Virus genome (UHGV): UHGV-1722906
From: a virus
DNA length: 19,959 nucleotides
Direction: 5' to 3' (one strand)
Below the pieces are notes generated by a model, which worked only from the letters and a program-made list of their open reading frames with translations, had not been told where the DNA came from and searched no databases. Positions 2,118 through 15,816 of this stretch are shown piece by piece (the stretch's first letter is position 1; each line of letters opens with the position of its first letter). The translations under genes and the position numbers were made by a program.

Positions 2118-3974
2118 CTATATGGTTACGCCTTTACTTATAACTCTACGGCGTCTTCTACGTATACCTGACGAGTTCTGCACATACACATTACCTCGCA
2201 TTTCCTGTTCAGCAAGCCAGTCAAAATTAGGGTTCAGAATTTCCATCGCGGCAGTTGCATAGTTACGGCAATCAAGAGGCTCGTTACGCTCGTAGACTTT
2301 CACCCACTTTTCTTTTGTCTGCCCATTTTTATATTCAAATATTTTTTTCTCTGATAATAGCCCTTTAAAATAATCAGTATCATATCCTCTGTCAGAATCT
2401 AATGGAAAATGCATATAACCAGGACCAGGATCATGTAGCTTAATTCGTGCCATGATGGTCCCTTTACCATCATCAACCCCCAAATTAAACAACATAGCAC
2501 CTACACGGTTATTATTGCTTGGCTTTCCTATAAACGGTAAACCTACCCCACCACGACCTCTGATAGAGTATATTCGCCTTGATTCTCGCGGCTTAGTAAA
2601 GCGATATACCTCTGTCGTAAAATGCCCACCAGAGTCAATACAAACGGAAGAAATCTGTAATTTTCGACCGTCACGAAATGACCAGCTACGGAGTAAGTAT
2701 TCATCAAGTTGTTTCCAGACAACATCTTGTGCGGGATCGCCCGGAAATATTTTATATTCAATCCCCCATGATTCCTTACCTTTTCCCCAACCGACCAATT
2801 CACAAACTAAATACGTGTCCTGTACGTCAACACCAGCACTTAACAATAAAACATCATCTGGTAAAAACTCTTCAAACCTTATTCTGCGTTGCAACAAGTA
2901 TTCAGGATCGATATCGTCTTTAGCATCCTCTTTCCATGGCTCACCCAGCTTAAGGTTAATAAACTCCATTAATCCATTTTTATCGCGGTTTCTGGTTGCT
3001 TCCGTAAATTCTTCAACCAGCTCTGACAATGCAACCCACGGGGAGTAAAGACTGTTAATATGAAAACCAACAATACCTTTAACTCCAGTATGTTCAGCTA
3101 TCCATACCCCCTTCGCCAACCAATCAACGTCTGGTTTACCAGATCCGCGCATAATCCCGCCGCACTCACAGCACTCATATCTGGCCGTTTCCGGTAACGC
3201 CTCACCTGAATCGCTCTTATCCCATCTGACTTGCGACCATTTCATCACCTGCATGGTGCCACAACATGGGCAAGGAACATGGTAGTAACGCTGATCGGAG
3301 AGCTTAAACCACTTGTGGATTTTGCTCGTTTCCTCCAAAACAGGAGTAGAAACAAAAACTTTCTTACGATTATGAAAGTTGGTAGTACGCTGAATACCTA
3401 GTTTTAGTGGGTCGCCCTCCTGCGTCACACCGTAACGATCAATCTCATCAGCTAACAATATTCGAATTGGCCTGGATGCAAGACCTGCTGGGGAATTAGC
3501 ACCAACAAGTGCTATATATCCACCAGCGTAATGTTTCATACGTATAGTCGTGCTGGACTTTTTGGCTGCACCGCGCCCCTCTTTCCCTTCATGCAGCTTG
3601 TGTTTCAAACCAGGGGAATATTTGAACGTCGGATCAATACGCTCTTTTGAAAAAGCCTCAGCCGCCTCTACCGTTGGATAAATCATCAACTGAGGAGATG
3701 GCTCCTGATCTGCAAAGTAACCCATAACATTTAGCTGTAATTCGGATTTACCAATTTGCGAGCTACATTGCATCACTACTGTTTCTGTATCAGCGTCACC
3801 AATAACATCCATTGGTTCACGCAAATATGGCACTCGGCTTGTACGCCACGGCCCTGGCTCTGGAGACGTTCCCGGCGCTACATGACGATACTTATCAGCC
3901 CATTCGGAAACAGTTAGCCGTGATTTAGGGCGAAGCGCACGGAAAAAAGCGGTGCTCCATACTGTTTCGCCCAT
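2118..3974 (-). CDS. Terminase large subunit (lambda gpA-like)
   Basis: 618-aa ORF with a cysteine cluster HVPCPCCG...CCECGG like the lambda gpA ACPHCG region. Lies between the small terminase and gpW-like genes. Confidence 0.9.
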   Translation of the reverse strand: MGETVWSTAFFRALRPKSRLTVSEWADKYRHVAPGTSPEPGPWRTSRVPYLREPMDVIGDADTETVVMQCSSQIGKSELQLNVMGYFADQEPSPQLMIYPTVEAAEAFSKERIDPTFKYSPGLKHKLHEGKEGRGAAKKSSTTIRMKHYAGGYIALVGANSPAGLASRPIRILLADEIDRYGVTQEGDPLKLGIQRTTNFHNRKKVFVSTPVLEETSKIHKWFKLSDQRYYHVPCPCCGTMQVMKWSQVRWDKSDSGEALPETARYECCECGGIMRGSGKPDVDWLAKGVWIAEHTGVKGIVGFHINSLYSPWVALSELVEEFTEATRNRDKNGLMEFINLKLGEPWKEDAKDDIDPEYLLQRRIRFEEFLPDDVLLLSAGVDVQDTYLVCELVGWGKGKESWGIEYKIFPGDPAQDVVWKQLDEYLLRSWSFRDGRKLQISSVCIDSGGHFTTEVYRFTKPRESRRIYSIRGRGGVGLPFIGKPSNNNRVGAMLFNLGVDDGKGTIMARIKLHDPGPGYMHFPLDSDRGYDTDYFKGLLSEKKIFEYKNGQTKEKWVKVYERNEPLDCRNYATAAMEILNPNFDWLAEQEMRGNVYVQNSSGIRRRRRRVISKGVTI

Positions 3975-12146: not shown

Positions 12147-12479
12147 GAAATTTACTACATTGCGTATAAGACAACTTTTCTATGTCTAATAGGAAATGAT
12201 GTTTCTTACGTTTTATCGCGTTCTGATGGCTACTGTGTGCGTATTTATCGACGTTTATTGATAAGGCTCCCCCTTCCTCCTGCAAAGCCCGGCCGTAGGC
12301 CTTATTTCGTCCTTATATAAATTGATTTTGTATAGTTCGAAACGTGCCGTTTCGAAAAGGATGATCAGGCTACTCCATGCCTCCGGCAAGTGCCGGAGGA
12401 GGTATATTTGAGCGTAGCGACTCGAACCGGCGCGAGCTTTAGCTCGCTGCAAGGGCGAACATATTCACAGGCAAAGCCT

Positions 12480-12731
12480 GCGTAAGTTAAATAAAGAAAG
12501 TTTTAATAAAAGAAAGTGATTTTGCATTTATTTGTTTAGTGCATCTATTATAAAAAACCATTTGCATATACATATCAAAACTGTGGATAACTTGATTAGT
12601 TGATACCTGTAAAGGCGATATTTTTGCTGAGTTCAGGTTTAGAGAAAATTAATTTAGCTTGTTTTTTGAACAGCTATTTTTTTGCGACGTAGATAATCCT
12701 CCGGTAAAACCGGATTCATCATTCAGGTGAG
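12480..12731. other. Candidate plasmid origin (IncFII oriR-like): AT-rich region plus a consensus DnaA box
   Basis: TGTGGATAA (reverse complement of TTATCCACA) at 12582-12590, about 145 bp downstream of the repA stop, next to an AT-rich stretch at 12480-12580. This matches the known repA-then-ori layout of IncFII replicons. Confidence 0.55.
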
Positions 12732-13580
12732 TTAATGTTGGAGTGATTTCCAGGTCTTTCTTAGCCTGTTATAACGCTGCTCAACGAGGGATCGTAAATA
12801 TGCAAGGTCAGCACCAGGATACATGCCATCAGCAAATTCCTGGCTAACCTCTCTAGTGATTTGATGACGAAGTTCGGCCTCTCCCTTTTCCTGAACAAGA
12901 CGCGCAGCTCTCTCCGCTGCTTTCTGTTTTGCCTTTATCTCTCTGGCCGTCTTCCTCTGACGCCATACATTCTCCATCTGCTCCTGAATAACAATACGCT
13001 TATAATCAGCCTCCGTTATCGCTTTTTTAAGCCGTTCGCTATTCTTCGCATTGAAGTAATTAAGTTTCTGGCTAACCGCACGTCTCCATGCTTGTTCAGT
13101 AATACCAACGGTTTCCAGCAGTTGATCACGAATCTCTATTTTCGCTGGCCAATACTGTTTATTCACCCGATCCCAGCGACGTTCATAATCAATAAAACCT
13201 AACGCTTTCAGTTGCGACAACGCCCTTGTACAGCGCGTTATAGACTTGTTCCCAGCTTCGGATACGGTAGACAGGCCGCAAAAATCAGCCAACGCCTCAG
13301 CACTAGCCAGAACCCGCTTAGAAATGATGTTTACATGGTGCAAAATCGCAGCGATCACAGCATTAATCGCCCGACGACGATGCTCGTTTATCCGGCGCTT
13401 CCGCTCTGACGGTTGATTAACGTAGAACGCAACCTCACACGTAAGATCACGCCCATTAATGCGCTGTAAAGCATCAGATAACACCAGCGGCAGCTTGTGC
13501 GTATGGTGCTTTGGAGGCTGGAACTCCGGCGACAAATTACAAACGTAAGCTGAACGTAGAGACGGCATTGGTCTATCCAT
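12732..13580 (-). CDS. repA: Plasmid replication initiator RepA (IncFII RepA1 family)
   Basis: From the ATG at 13580 (MDRPMPSLRS...) the protein is 283 aa and aligns by eye with R100/R1 RepA1 as I recall it, with RRRAINAVIAAI at the same residue positions as RRRAIDALLQGL and SITRCTRALSQLKALGFIDY against SITRATRALTFLSELGLITY. The track ORF extends to 13709, but those 43 extra codons overlie a terminator hairpin and are probably leader, not protein. Confidence 0.85.
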   Translation of the reverse strand: MDRPMPSLRSAYVCNLSPEFQPPKHHTHKLPLVLSDALQRINGRDLTCEVAFYVNQPSERKRRINEHRRRAINAVIAAILHHVNIISKRVLASAEALADFCGLSTVSEAGNKSITRCTRALSQLKALGFIDYERRWDRVNKQYWPAKIEIRDQLLETVGITEQAWRRAVSQKLNYFNAKNSERLKKAITEADYKRIVIQEQMENVWRQRKTAREIKAKQKAAERAARLVQEKGEAELRHQITREVSQEFADGMYPGADLAYLRSLVEQRYNRLRKTWKSLQH

Positions 13581-13589
13581 ATGTTCGCT

Positions 13590-13702
13590 CTTGCGTCCAC
13601 GGAAAACCAACGTATAATGGGAGTTGTCGAGGCGCCCATGGTTAATTGTTGGTTTTCCGTGGATGTCGCAAGAAGCCCGCAGATTTATCTGCGGGCTTTT
13701 TG
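13590..13702 (+). ncRNA. Candidate CopA-like antisense (countertranscript) RNA over the repA leader
   Basis: Plus-strand promoter-like TTGCGT-16-TATAAT (about 13591-13618), a long imperfect inverted repeat (13598-13615 with 13646-13663), and a perfect terminator hairpin AGCCCGCAG-ATTTA-CTGCGGGCT plus TTTTT (13674-13702). It is antisense to the repA 5' region and nothing on the plus strand is coding here. Confidence 0.4.
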
Positions 13703-13890
13703 TTTCCATATCTGGTCACTTTCCAACCAGACACCCACAATCATAACCACGTTACGTGGTTTTAAGAGAACTCTACCACAACACTTTCGGTCATGCACGA
13801 AGTCTCTCACTGATCGAACGATAATCCACCAGTAAAAGGATCTAAATTGGATCTCGTTTTGCGAGCATCATACTACTGGCCTAACTCCAG

Positions 13891-14445
13891 TCAATGATTC
13901 CCAGCCGGAAACCTGCGGTAAAGCGTGGATAAGGTAACATCGAAGATAATCGCTATCCGCTTACGTGAAACACCATTCGCAATAAGCCTTCCGATCTGTT
14001 CCCATTGCTCTGGTGCCAGCTTTGAGCGACGTCCTCCTATCCTGCCGTTAGCCCTTGCCACCGCCAATCCTGCACGCGTTCTTTCAATCATATTTTCCCG
14101 CTCCATCTCTGCGACTGCACTCAGCATCGTGTAGGCAAAGCGGCCAATTGAAGTGCTAATTTTTATCCCTTCCGTAATCGAAATAAACTCAATGTTGTTT
14201 GATAAAAAATGGTTAAGTAAATCAACAAGATGAATCAGAGAACGCCCCATTCGGTCCAGCTTCCAGACAATAACCGTATCGCCCGGCCGTAGCACCTTAA
14301 GTAGCTTATCAAGCCCTGGCCGTTTTGATTTAGCACCGGATATTTTATCTTCAAAAATCCGGTCACATCCTGAACTCCTGAGCGCCTCCAGTTGTAATTC
14401 CAAATTCTGGTCAAAAGTTGACACCCTCGCATAACCATATTGCAT
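13891..14445 (-). CDS. pin: DNA invertase, serine recombinase of the Pin/Gin/Hin/Cin family
   Basis: 184-aa ORF with N-terminal catalytic motif GYARVSTFDQ and a C-terminal HTH (IAIIFDVTLSTLYRRFP) like the Hin/Pin DNA-binding domain. Sits next to inverted tail-fibre cassettes. Confidence 0.9.
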   Translation of the reverse strand: MQYGYARVSTFDQNLELQLEALRSSGCDRIFEDKISGAKSKRPGLDKLLKVLRPGDTVIVWKLDRMGRSLIHLVDLLNHFLSNNIEFISITEGIKISTSIGRFAYTMLSAVAEMERENMIERTRAGLAVARANGRIGGRRSKLAPEQWEQIGRLIANGVSRKRIAIIFDVTLSTLYRRFPAGNH

Positions 14446-14510
14446 ACTTTCTAAACCGCGATTGTTGCTAAAAGCGGGAAAAAATATCGTTCAGACGACA
14501 CAGAGGCAAT

Positions 14511-14536
14511 TCGCAAAAACCTCGGTTTGCAGGAAA
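14511..14536. other. gix/pix-like 26-bp site A (extra site between pin and the functional left site)
   Basis: Reverse complement reads TTCCTGCAAACC-GA-GGTTTTTGCGAA. Its left half and inner flank are identical to the right site and the start of the expressed variable segment. Core is 49 bp from site B, so out of frame with it. Confidence 0.5.
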
Positions 14537-14558
14537 CGGTAAATCAGGCTTGCCGCCG

Positions 14559-14584
14559 TTATCGAATACCTCGGTTTACGAGAA
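14559..14584. other. Left crossover site B at the start of the silent Sv' cassette
   Basis: Reverse complement reads TTCTCGTAAACC-GA-GGTATTCGATAA; the outer half and about 21 bp of flank (encoding AAVIEY) are identical to the constant side of site R. Confidence 0.65.
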
Positions 14585-15280
14585 CTCGGCACAAGCGGGG
14601 AAAAAATACCGTTACTCAGTACGGCGAATACCTGGACCAATCGACAAACATTCAGTGGTGGCCTTTCTGGGGAACTGTCCGGCAATGCCGCTACTGCAAC
14701 AAAGCTGAAAACAGCACGAAAAATTGCTGGAGTTGGTTTTGATGGTTCTAGCGATATTTCAATTAGTGCCAAAAATGTCAATGCATTTGCACTCCGACAA
14801 ACAGGTAATACTGTTAATGGTGATACTTCCGTTGGATGGAATTGGGATAGTGGTGCATATAACGCCATGATTGGTGGCGCATCTGCATTAATTCTTCACT
14901 TTAATATAAATGCTGGTAGCTGTCCTGCCGTACAATTCCGTGTGAATTATAAAAATGGTGGCATTTCCTACAGGTCAGCTCGTGATGGTTATGGATTTGA
15001 ATTAGGTTGGTCAGATTTCTATACCACGACACGAAAACCATCAGCGGGAGATGTTGGCGCATATACTAAAGCGGAATGTAATTCACGTTTTATTACAGGT
15101 GTTCGTTTAGGAGGCCTGTCATCTGTTCAAACATGGAATGGGCCTGGTTGGTCTGATAAGTCAGGTTATGTCGTTACGGGTTCAGTTAACGGAAACCGTG
15201 ATGAATTAATTGATACAACTCAGGCAAGGCCAATTCAGTATTGCATCAATGGAACGTGGTATAACGCGGGGAGTATTTAA
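14561..15280 (+). CDS. Alternative tail-fibre C-terminal cassette (Sv'-like); promoterless, no start codon, expressed only after inversion
   Basis: Frame open from site B to the stop at 15280 per the track frame (track ORF 14867..15280 is its first in-frame ATG). Translates to ...LGLRELGTSGEKIPLLSTANTW...HFNINAGSCPAVQFRVNYKNGG...IQYCINGTWYNAGSI, a typical side-tail-fibre C-terminal domain. Confidence 0.75.
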   Translation: MEYLGLRELGTSGEKIPLLSTANTWTNRQTFSGGLSGELSGNAATATKLKTARKIAGVGFDGSSDISISAKNVNAFALRQTGNTVNGDTSVGWNWDSGAYNAMIGGASALILHFNINAGSCPAVQFRVNYKNGGISYRSARDGYGFELGWSDFYTTTRKPSAGDVGAYTKAECNSRFITGVRLGGLSSVQTWNGPGWSDKSGYVVTGSVNGNRDELIDTTQARPIQYCINGTWYNAGSI

Positions 15281-15282
15281 TT

Positions 15283-15816
15283 ATGATGCACTTAAAAAAT
15301 ATTACTGCTGGCAACCCTAAAACAAAAGAGCAATACCAGCTAACGAAACAATTTAACATCAAATGGCTTTATTCAGAGGATGGAAAAAACTGGTATGAGG
15401 AACAAAAGAATTTCCAGCCAGACACTTTGAAAATGGTCTATGACCATAACGGCGTTATTATTTGTATTGAAAAGGATGTTTCAGCAATTAATCCGGAAGG
15501 CGCAAGCGTCGTTGAATTACCTGATATTACAGCAAATCGCCGTGCTGACATTTCGGGTAAATGGATGTTCAAAGATGGCGTAGTGGTAAGGCGAACTTAT
15601 ACCGAGGAAGAGCAGAGGCAGCAGGCGGAAAATGAAAAGCAAAGCCTGCTACAGCTCGTCAGGGATAAAACCCAACTATGGGACTCACAGCTACGGCTGG
15701 GCATCATTTCCGACGAGAATAAACAAAAATTAACAGAGTGGATGCTCTTTGCGCAGAAAGTCGAATCTACAGACACTTCCAGCCTGCCAGTAACGTTTCC
15801 CGAACAACCAGAATGA
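15283..15816 (+). CDS. tfa: Tail-fibre assembly protein, alternative copy (Tfa') for the silent cassette
   Basis: 177-aa ORF; N-terminus MMHLKNITAGNPKTKEQYQLTK...[13 protein letters not shown] is homologous to the opposite-strand tfa. Confidence 0.85.
   Translation: MMHLKNITAGNPKTKEQYQLTKQFNIKWLYSEDGKNWYEEQKNFQPDTLKMVYDHNGVIICIEKDVSAINPEGASVVELPDITANRRADISGKWMFKDGVVVRRTYTEEEQRQQAENEKQSLLQLVRDKTQLWDSQLRLGIISDENKQKLTEWMLFAQKVESTDTSSLPVTFPEQPE

Follow-up and report, generated by a model that had tools for sequence, protein, structure and literature searches.

The window, that is the whole stretch of 19,959 nt of viral DNA that was analysed (UHGV virus genome UHGV-1722906), contains a replicon in which the initiator gene repA lies on the minus strand and its leader is overlapped, on the plus strand, by a predicted antisense RNA gene (Table 1). 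The window matches a 48.5-kb circular E. coli plasmid (NZ_CP024865.1) at 100%, and 62 plasmid records as well as the Yersinia phages vB_YpM_39, 41 and 44 match it at 97–100%. The element is carried by 71 of 5,426 complete E. coli genomes, among them the reference strain ATCC 25922, and is always plasmid-borne, with one copy per genome. The neighbours of the replicon are tail-fibre genes, a DNA invertase and a RelE/ParE module, and we therefore regard the element as a phage-plasmid. MOB-suite assigned no replicon type to these plasmids, and a first guess at a phage-plasmid group label, pSLy3, was dropped, that group being part of the SSU5 supergroup.

The invertase is of the Hin/Cin type and adjoins tail-fibre and tail-fibre-assembly genes (window 13891–15816). 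Beyond 13923, the relatives diverge sharply and the gene next to repA differs in some of them, which, together with the invertase and tail-fibre genes, is consistent with an invertible host-range segment. On the other side of repA, an AT-rich stretch (12540–12700) holds a consensus DnaA box (TGTGGATAA, 12582–12590) ~140 nt downstream of the repA stop codon, the expected position for an IncFII-type origin. Two perfect short hairpins, CCTCCGGCA-AGT-GCCGGAGG (12377–12400) and GCGAGCT-TT-AGCTCGC (12434–12449), are located between this probable origin and the toxin–antitoxin module.

The RepA protein matches the Pfam IncFII_repA profile (PF02387) with E = 1e-43 and 150.2 bits, against a curated cut-off of 22.9, and is 40% identical to RepA1 of R100 across a 97-aa core. 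Both hexamers of the probable repA promoter are retained in the Salmonella-like group of relatives defined below, where the -10 reads TATCAT. Directly downstream of this promoter lies an inverted repeat, GGATCTAAATTGGATC (13838–13853), with two GATC sites, and a further GATC is present at 13812–13815; GATC clusters are found at the equivalent position in the Salmonella-like group, in L006 and in L150, and the repeat may serve as an operator or as a site sensitive to Dam/SeqA. An additional small hairpin of the leader (13747–13767, minus strand; AACCACG-UAA-CGUGGUU) is retained in the Salmonella-like group as AACCAC-GUUGU-GUGGUU, with the loop and the bases at the top of the stem changed.

Table 1. 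Features of the repA leader and of the predicted antisense RNA gene, with window coordinates
Feature	Coordinates	Strand	Basis
repA, IncFII_repA family initiator	12732..13568	-	Pfam PF02387, likeness to R100 RepA1
Probable repA promoter, TTGACT-16-TATGAT	13867..13894	-	Consensus scanner, 10/12 matches
Most likely RepA start codon (MPSLRS...)	13566..13568	-	Homologue length, Pfam, Salmonella annotation
Alternative in-frame start (MDRPMPSL...)	13578..13580	-	AAGAG Shine-Dalgarno 13588-13592
ATG of annotated 325-aa long RepA	13707..13709	-	Rejected as start
Hairpin B of repA mRNA leader	13588..13674	-	Fold z = -8.1, arm pairing in relatives
Hairpin B apical stem-loop, AUGGG/CCCAU closing 13-nt invariant loop CGCCUCGACAACU	13617..13639	-	Helix covaries
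Predicted alternative helix, hairpin B 3' arm (13598-13612) with start region (13566-13581)	13566..13612	-	Folding, inference
Putative -35, TTGCGT, 3/6 matches	13591..13596	+	Sequence; TTGC core in all four leader groups
Putative -10, TATAAT, perfect	13613..13618	+	Sequence and conservation
Predicted antisense RNA, ~78-83 nt	~13623..13705	+	Fold energy; three-part plan in relatives
5' tail GUUGUCGA, single-stranded, 8 nt	13623..13630	+	Unpaired in all consensus folds
SL1, imperfect stem-loop GGCG.CCAUGG / CCGUGG.UGUC	13631..13667	+	Folds, pairing across relatives
Hypervariable segment of SL1 apical loop, TTAATT here	13642..13647	+	Allele comparison, E. coli-group plasmids
SL2, intrinsic terminator hairpin and T-run	13668..13705	+	Folds, compensatory changes

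Four leader groups were compared: the E. coli group, to which the window belongs; a Salmonella-like group (L002, L003 and L035), with RepA 81–86% identical to that of the window; a Citrobacter-like group (L005–L008, L021, L023, L024, L028 and L029), with a RepA identity of ~60%; and the single locus L150, with a RepA identity of 30%. The Citrobacter-like group was retrieved via the RepA protein and is therefore free of bias towards the RNA; L150 was retrieved via the loop motif of the leader. An 18-base version of this motif, searched against genome contigs, produced chance matches only, in unrelated metagenome-assembled genomes (L010–L019), and L025 and L026, which came from viral sequences, were discarded as chance matches too. 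The scan of viral contigs with a 14-mer gave mostly chance matches, and L150 was its sole real one; the RepA scan of metagenomes returned near-identical copies almost exclusively.

The RefSeq annotation of NZ_CP024865.1 gives a 325-aa RepA starting at 13709, a start which, according to the initial annotation of this region, would make the stretch coding. The comparison speaks against it: all homologues are 274–283 aa long and begin with M-x-LRS, corresponding to the ATG at 13568; position 2 of the Pfam profile falls on residue 52 of the 325-aa form; the ATG is missing from the Salmonella-like group, where the annotated start is the equivalent of 13568; and its frame is lost in L020, L037, L040 and L044, which have loop alleles longer by 2 or 5 nt and belong to plasmids with RepA proteins 98.6–100% identical. 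The start of RepA is thus most likely at 13568 and possibly at 13580; the Shine-Dalgarno sequence of the latter is paired within the base of a leader hairpin (hairpin B, below), and the equivalent ATG of the Salmonella-like group is not in frame with repA. In public records of near-identical plasmids, repA is 837, 849, 978 or 981 bp long, and it is split in one ATCC 25922 assembly. The annotated start follows the frame of the loop allele, and the long forms therefore look like annotation artefacts.

Open reading frames of the plus strand that cross 13590–13702 are also interrupted by indels in close relatives, so the earlier statement that no protein is encoded there holds for both strands. 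Judged by these comparisons, the stretch 13581–13709 is non-coding leader, one of the two roles that the initial annotation had offered for it; for the other, that of leader peptide, a small ORF conserved across the leader groups was sought and not found. The window does have a 19-codon ORF (MIVGVWLESDQIWKQKARR, 13685–13744, minus strand) that stops at a UAA in the loop of leader hairpin A, and L002 and L003 have an 18-codon ORF stopping at the same UAA; it is absent from L035 and the Citrobacter-like group and is probably a chance occurrence. In the Citrobacter-like group, an ORF located ~70 nt past the loop motif encodes a RepA paralogue, which directly follows the control element; it has its full 274 aa in L023 and L024 and is reduced to 158–162 aa in L005 (region 2516–3834), L007 (region 2528–3834) and L028, where it and a complete second repA overlap by ATGA. 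Recombination between control module and initiator seems to have occurred in this group.

Opposite the leader, a good sigma70-like promoter had been reported initially. This description holds for the -10 hexamer, which is perfect and, among the four groups, differs in L150 only (TATTAT), and less so for the rest: the -35 hexamer has three of six matches, there is no TGn extension, and the consensus promoter scanner made no call at this site. The spacer is 16 nt in the window (13591–13618) and 16–18 nt between TTGC-type -35 hexamers and the -10 across the four leader groups. TATAAT occurs 13 times in the window against 14 expected by chance; it carries weight because it is conserved, the match alone being no commoner than chance.

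The RNA would start at 13623–13626, ~7 nt past the -10, and end within the T-run. Its predicted fold (13623–13705; -41.1 kcal/mol, z = -6.7) consists of three parts: an unpaired 5' tail and two stem-loops, SL1 and SL2. The tail is part of a 14-mer, GGAGTTGTCGAGGC (13620–13633), considered below. In SL1, the paired fraction of cells is 100%, against 42–54% for slid controls; its changes comprise a compensatory G-C to A-U in L003 and one-sided wobbles in L002 and L035, and it makes use of G.U pairs, which can form on the plus strand only, their minus-strand counterparts being A.C mismatches. SL2 is a terminator hairpin with a GC core (13675–13682 paired with 13689–13696), a TTTA loop and the T-run TTTTTGTTT (13697–13705), as reported before. 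It pairs fully in 19 sequences (slid controls for the two stem-loops, 42–61% of cells) and shows compensatory changes from A-U to G-C in L035 and from AG/CU to UA/UA in the Citrobacter-like group; its covariation score was reached by none of 500 shuffles. The T-run follows the hairpin on the plus strand, the minus strand having UUCUUG or CUCUGC instead. The terminator scanner made no call at SL2, apparently because the T-run is taken up by A/T pairs that lengthen the stem.

The plan of tail, SL1 and SL2 is common to the four groups; it recurs in the consensus folds (alifold) of two groups and in the fold of L150, and every predicted pair of the antisense RNA is kept in every sequence of the four leader groups. 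Compensatory changes are few, and, as the sequences form four tight groups, the covariation represents few independent events. Since the scanners called neither promoter nor terminator and TATAAT is as frequent as expected by chance, the case for the gene rests on the relatives. On this comparative footing, a genuine antisense RNA gene at ~13623–13705 is highly probable. A small 5' hairpin on the plus strand, GGGAGUUGUCGAGGCGCCC, was rejected as part of the RNA, as it would require a start directly after the -10; its pairs make better sense as the apical helix of a sense-strand hairpin. A literature search found no published description of the RNA.

The 113-nt stretch as a whole folds at -67.1 kcal/mol (z = -10.8), and none of 200 shuffles was as good. 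The long imperfect stem-loop noted initially is thus present, yet most of it is structure of the repA mRNA: a 20-bp hairpin (13593–13667), in which 13593–13612 pairs with 13647–13666, encloses the -35, spacer and -10 and, as it contains the antisense promoter, cannot form within an RNA started there and belongs to the minus strand. The stem-loop that the countertranscript itself would possess is SL1.

On the minus strand, the repA leader folds into two hairpins, A and B. Hairpin A is the complement of the terminator, followed by UUCUUG and hence a poor terminator on this strand. Hairpin B is built on a base of an 8-bp helix, UUCUUGCG/CGCAAGAG, and an ACA bulge, above which come a 16-bp main helix, an internal loop at the position of the hypervariable segment, a 5-bp apical helix and the apical loop. 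The antisense promoter is contained in the 3' arm and upper part of this hairpin, with its -35 in the 3' arm. In 19 of 19 variants, the arms pair at -20 to -39 kcal/mol, compared with approximately -13 for shuffled arms. Two compensatory pairs separate the window from L035; in the Citrobacter-like group and L150, the arms are wholly different in sequence and still paired; and the U.G wobbles of L002 and L035 are possible on the minus strand only. As the 3' arm corresponds to the promoter spacer and lies outside the small RNA, covariation of the arms shows that the mRNA hairpin is real.

The apical helix of hairpin B is AUCG/CGAU or AAUCG/CGAUU in the Citrobacter-like group and UAUCGGA/UCCGAUA in L150. 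The 14-mer above it, GCCUCGACAACUCC in the mRNA loop, is unchanged in the four groups, across RepA proteins that are 30–100% identical; in the mRNA it caps hairpin B, and in the predicted RNA it provides the 5' end. An antisense RNA and its target co-vary automatically, so such constancy is more than pairing by itself would demand. A partner of the invariant loop, as in a pseudoknot, was sought upstream and downstream in the leader, and no consistent one was found; the best duplexes of the loop with flanking leader have -6.5 to -11 kcal/mol, at positions that differ between groups.

The hypervariable segment, on the 5' flank of the apical loop of SL1, behaves in the opposite way. The E. coli group has nine loop alleles (TTAATT in the window), with loops of 15, 17, 18 and 20 nt next to RepA proteins that are 98.6–100% identical, and the Salmonella-like group adds three more; ATTGTTGTT is another of the alleles, and the SL1 apex varies in the Citrobacter-like group too. 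When 15 distinct sequences of the E. coli group are compared in 30-column bins from 12717 to 13922, the bin at 13630–13652 has 13 variable columns and 48 minor-allele counts, whereas all other bins have 0–6 variable columns. This hot spot is as expected of the determinant of specificity, or incompatibility, of an antisense RNA and would fit such a role. The segment holds AAC repeats, so slippage rather than selection could explain part of the variation.

These elements suggest the following mode of control. From TTGCGT-16-TATAAT, a small untranslated RNA would be transcribed that is fully complementary to the repA mRNA leader and would pair with hairpin A and with the 5' arm and loop of hairpin B; the more plasmid copies, the more antisense RNA and the less RepA. 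The target would be the 5' half of hairpin B, and pairing would probably begin at two sites: between the invariant apical loop and the 5' tail of the RNA, and at the hypervariable segment, which lies at the apex of SL1 but in an internal loop of the target and would set specificity and incompatibility type.

The 5' end of the RNA lies 43–46 nt from the ATG at 13580 and 55–58 nt from that at 13568, so it would not block ribosomes directly, and an indirect form of inhibition is most likely. Neither hairpin B nor the alternative helix described next is followed by a U-run, which makes transcription attenuation unlikely. If the 5' arm of hairpin B were captured by the antisense RNA, the freed 3' arm could pair with the Shine-Dalgarno/AUG region (13566–13581) and close it to ribosomes. 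When the leader is folded with the antisense target unavailable, 13598–13612 indeed pairs with 13566–13581, burying both candidate AUGs, and the mean unpaired probability around the ATG at 13568 falls from 0.58 to 0.28. The start region becomes less accessible in 11 of 11 representatives, often modestly and by only 0.01 in L023; in a twelfth locus, L150, it is already closed without the constraint, the alternative helix being predicted even without the antisense RNA.

The alternative helix has -16.2 kcal/mol in the window (p = 0.013–0.03; L150, p = 0.0005–0.001). With each group represented by a single locus and a fixed span of -30 to +15, it gave p = 0.03, 0.07, 0.08 and 0.0005 against shuffles and p = 0.013, 0.036, 0.044 and 0.001 against genomic windows in the four groups. 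The combined Fisher p is ~2e-5 to 8e-5, to be read in the light of the refolding idea having been formed on two of the four test groups, with L150 as the sole out-of-sample test; the helix is no better than chance in L035, L006, L023, L024 and L028. A likeness between the start region and the hairpin B 5' arm is seen in every group: GGAUAGACCAAU and GGAAAACCAAC in the window, GCCAGG...CCACAC in the Citrobacter-like group, and GAGAAUCCGC and GGAAUCCAC in L150. We infer that the antisense RNA is transcribed and acts negatively, and repression of RepA synthesis is likely; refolding as the route of inhibition is a tentative proposal from these folding models, somewhat less probable than its absence.

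Among the alternatives, the one that fares best retains repression of RepA and dispenses with refolding: RNase III would cut the ~80-bp duplex and the mRNA decay, or the invariant loop would be an activator or standby element that the antisense RNA masks. Cleavage of the duplex is documented for CopA–CopT of R1, which counts for the RNase III version. The invariance of the 14-nt loop next to RepA proteins of 30–100% identity exceeds what antisense pairing needs, and for several members the statistics of the alternative helix are weak, both of which fit such a mechanism. We nevertheless consider it unlikely, in view of the failure to find a consistent loop partner upstream or downstream and of a start region that mimics the 5' arm in four groups with unrelated arm sequences. 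A second alternative is that there is no antisense RNA, the structures being cis elements of the repA leader and one hairpin resembling a plus-strand terminator by chance. The weak -35, the silent scanner, the chance frequency of TATAAT in the window and the minus-strand character of hairpin B and its apical helix are compatible with this; what makes it quite improbable is that a T-run follows the hairpin on the plus strand only, in all four groups, with TATAAT (TATTAT in L150) fixed ~85 nt upstream of it, that the G.U pairs of SL1 are impossible on the minus strand, that a hypervariable loop would be hard to account for in an element acting purely in cis, and that relatives in the family have proven antisense RNAs. 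Finally, it is very improbable that the region codes, either for a RepA starting at 13709 or for a leader peptide, although the frame is open in the window and annotated so in NZ_CP024865.1, given an ATG absent from the Salmonella-like group, loop alleles of +2/+5 nt that break the frame, homologues of 274–283 aa with the Pfam domain aligning from residue 52, and small ORFs that are not conserved across groups.

Taken as one claim, the presence of an antisense RNA gene and its negative control of RepA synthesis are thus a reasonably probable reading of the locus. At the level of sequence prediction, the general features of antisense-controlled replicons are present: a structured non-coding RNA gene, its promoter and terminator, complementarity to the rep leader and a variable loop. 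Definition of the control RNA would allow the inconsistent public annotations of the repA start to be corrected, the loop allele is a potential typing marker, and the RNA would offer a handle for curing the elements or altering their copy number.

Antisense control is the rule in the IncFII_repA family, and CopA is a negative post-transcriptional regulator of RepA (PMC5717011). The comparative data are best fitted by an antisense gene that faces the leader of such an initiator, in agreement with the IncFII-like control initially proposed, but the label CopA-like did not survive. Across the whole window, Rfam gave no match at the gathering level, and within 13400–13900 the CopA, PK-repBA and PK-repZ models had none at E<=10, a cut-off at which sub-threshold terminator-like matches alone appeared (e.g., Thr_leader and CsrC). 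R100, the positive control, scored 106.3 bits with the CopA model RF00042 (threshold 60). Likewise, L004, which encodes a RepA 63% identical to that of the window, scored 49.3 bits with PK-repBA (threshold 45) and weakly with CopA and PK-repZ, so the control RNA differs even between initiators as closely related as these. L004 is a contig of a conjugative-type plasmid, with its IncL/M-type control region at 2863–2989.

The predicted RNA shares with CopA/CopT (R1, R100) a length of ~80–90 nt, its position opposite the leader of an IncFII_repA-family initiator, two stem-loops, and a loop sequence that is expected to set specificity. Unlike in that system, recognition hairpin and terminator are separate hairpins here, the antisense promoter is inside the target hairpin, and the 5' end is 43–58 nt from the repA starts, whereas that of R100 CopA is 18 nt from the tap start. 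A tap leader peptide is missing, and no CopB gene was found upstream of repA, where the next gene is the DNA invertase (13891–14445), with ~180 nt of non-coding sequence between. With RNAI/Inc RNA and the activator pseudoknot of IncL/M, IncB and IncI1 (RF01089, RF01087), the locus has in common the initiator superfamily and an antisense RNA directed against a leader stem-loop; it differs from them in having no PK-repBA or PK-repZ match and no conserved leader peptide, and no consistent pseudoknot partner was found for its loop. Copy control here would thus be ordinary in kind and new in form, a well-supported candidate outside the CopA and RNAI families. A broader view, which we hold to be possible but doubtful, is that the module represents a distinct family unmatched by Rfam release 15, serving IncFII-superfamily initiators down to 30% identity, with the promoter in the target hairpin, a loop held constant by an extra partner (host factor, ribosome or chaperone) and a hypervariable loop that defines incompatibility, or "plasmid immunity", types among near-identical phage-plasmids.

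The closest parallel in logic comes from elsewhere. RNAI of pSK41 binds far upstream of the translation start, and an induced stem-loop has been proposed to sequester the ribosome-binding site; in pSK41, as in pT181, an upstream segment normally pre-empts the sequestering pairing (PMC5703833). This pre-emptor logic is the same as that suggested for the refolding of the repA leader. The initiators (RepA_N and Rep_trans) and hosts of these plasmids are unrelated to those of the window and there is no sequence relationship; moreover, pT181 acts by transcription termination, whereas the leader described here has no U-run. If the refolding reading is true, an enterobacterial replicon of the IncFII family would employ pSK41-like refolding in place of a leader peptide or pseudoknot, with the invariant loop pointing to an extra player.
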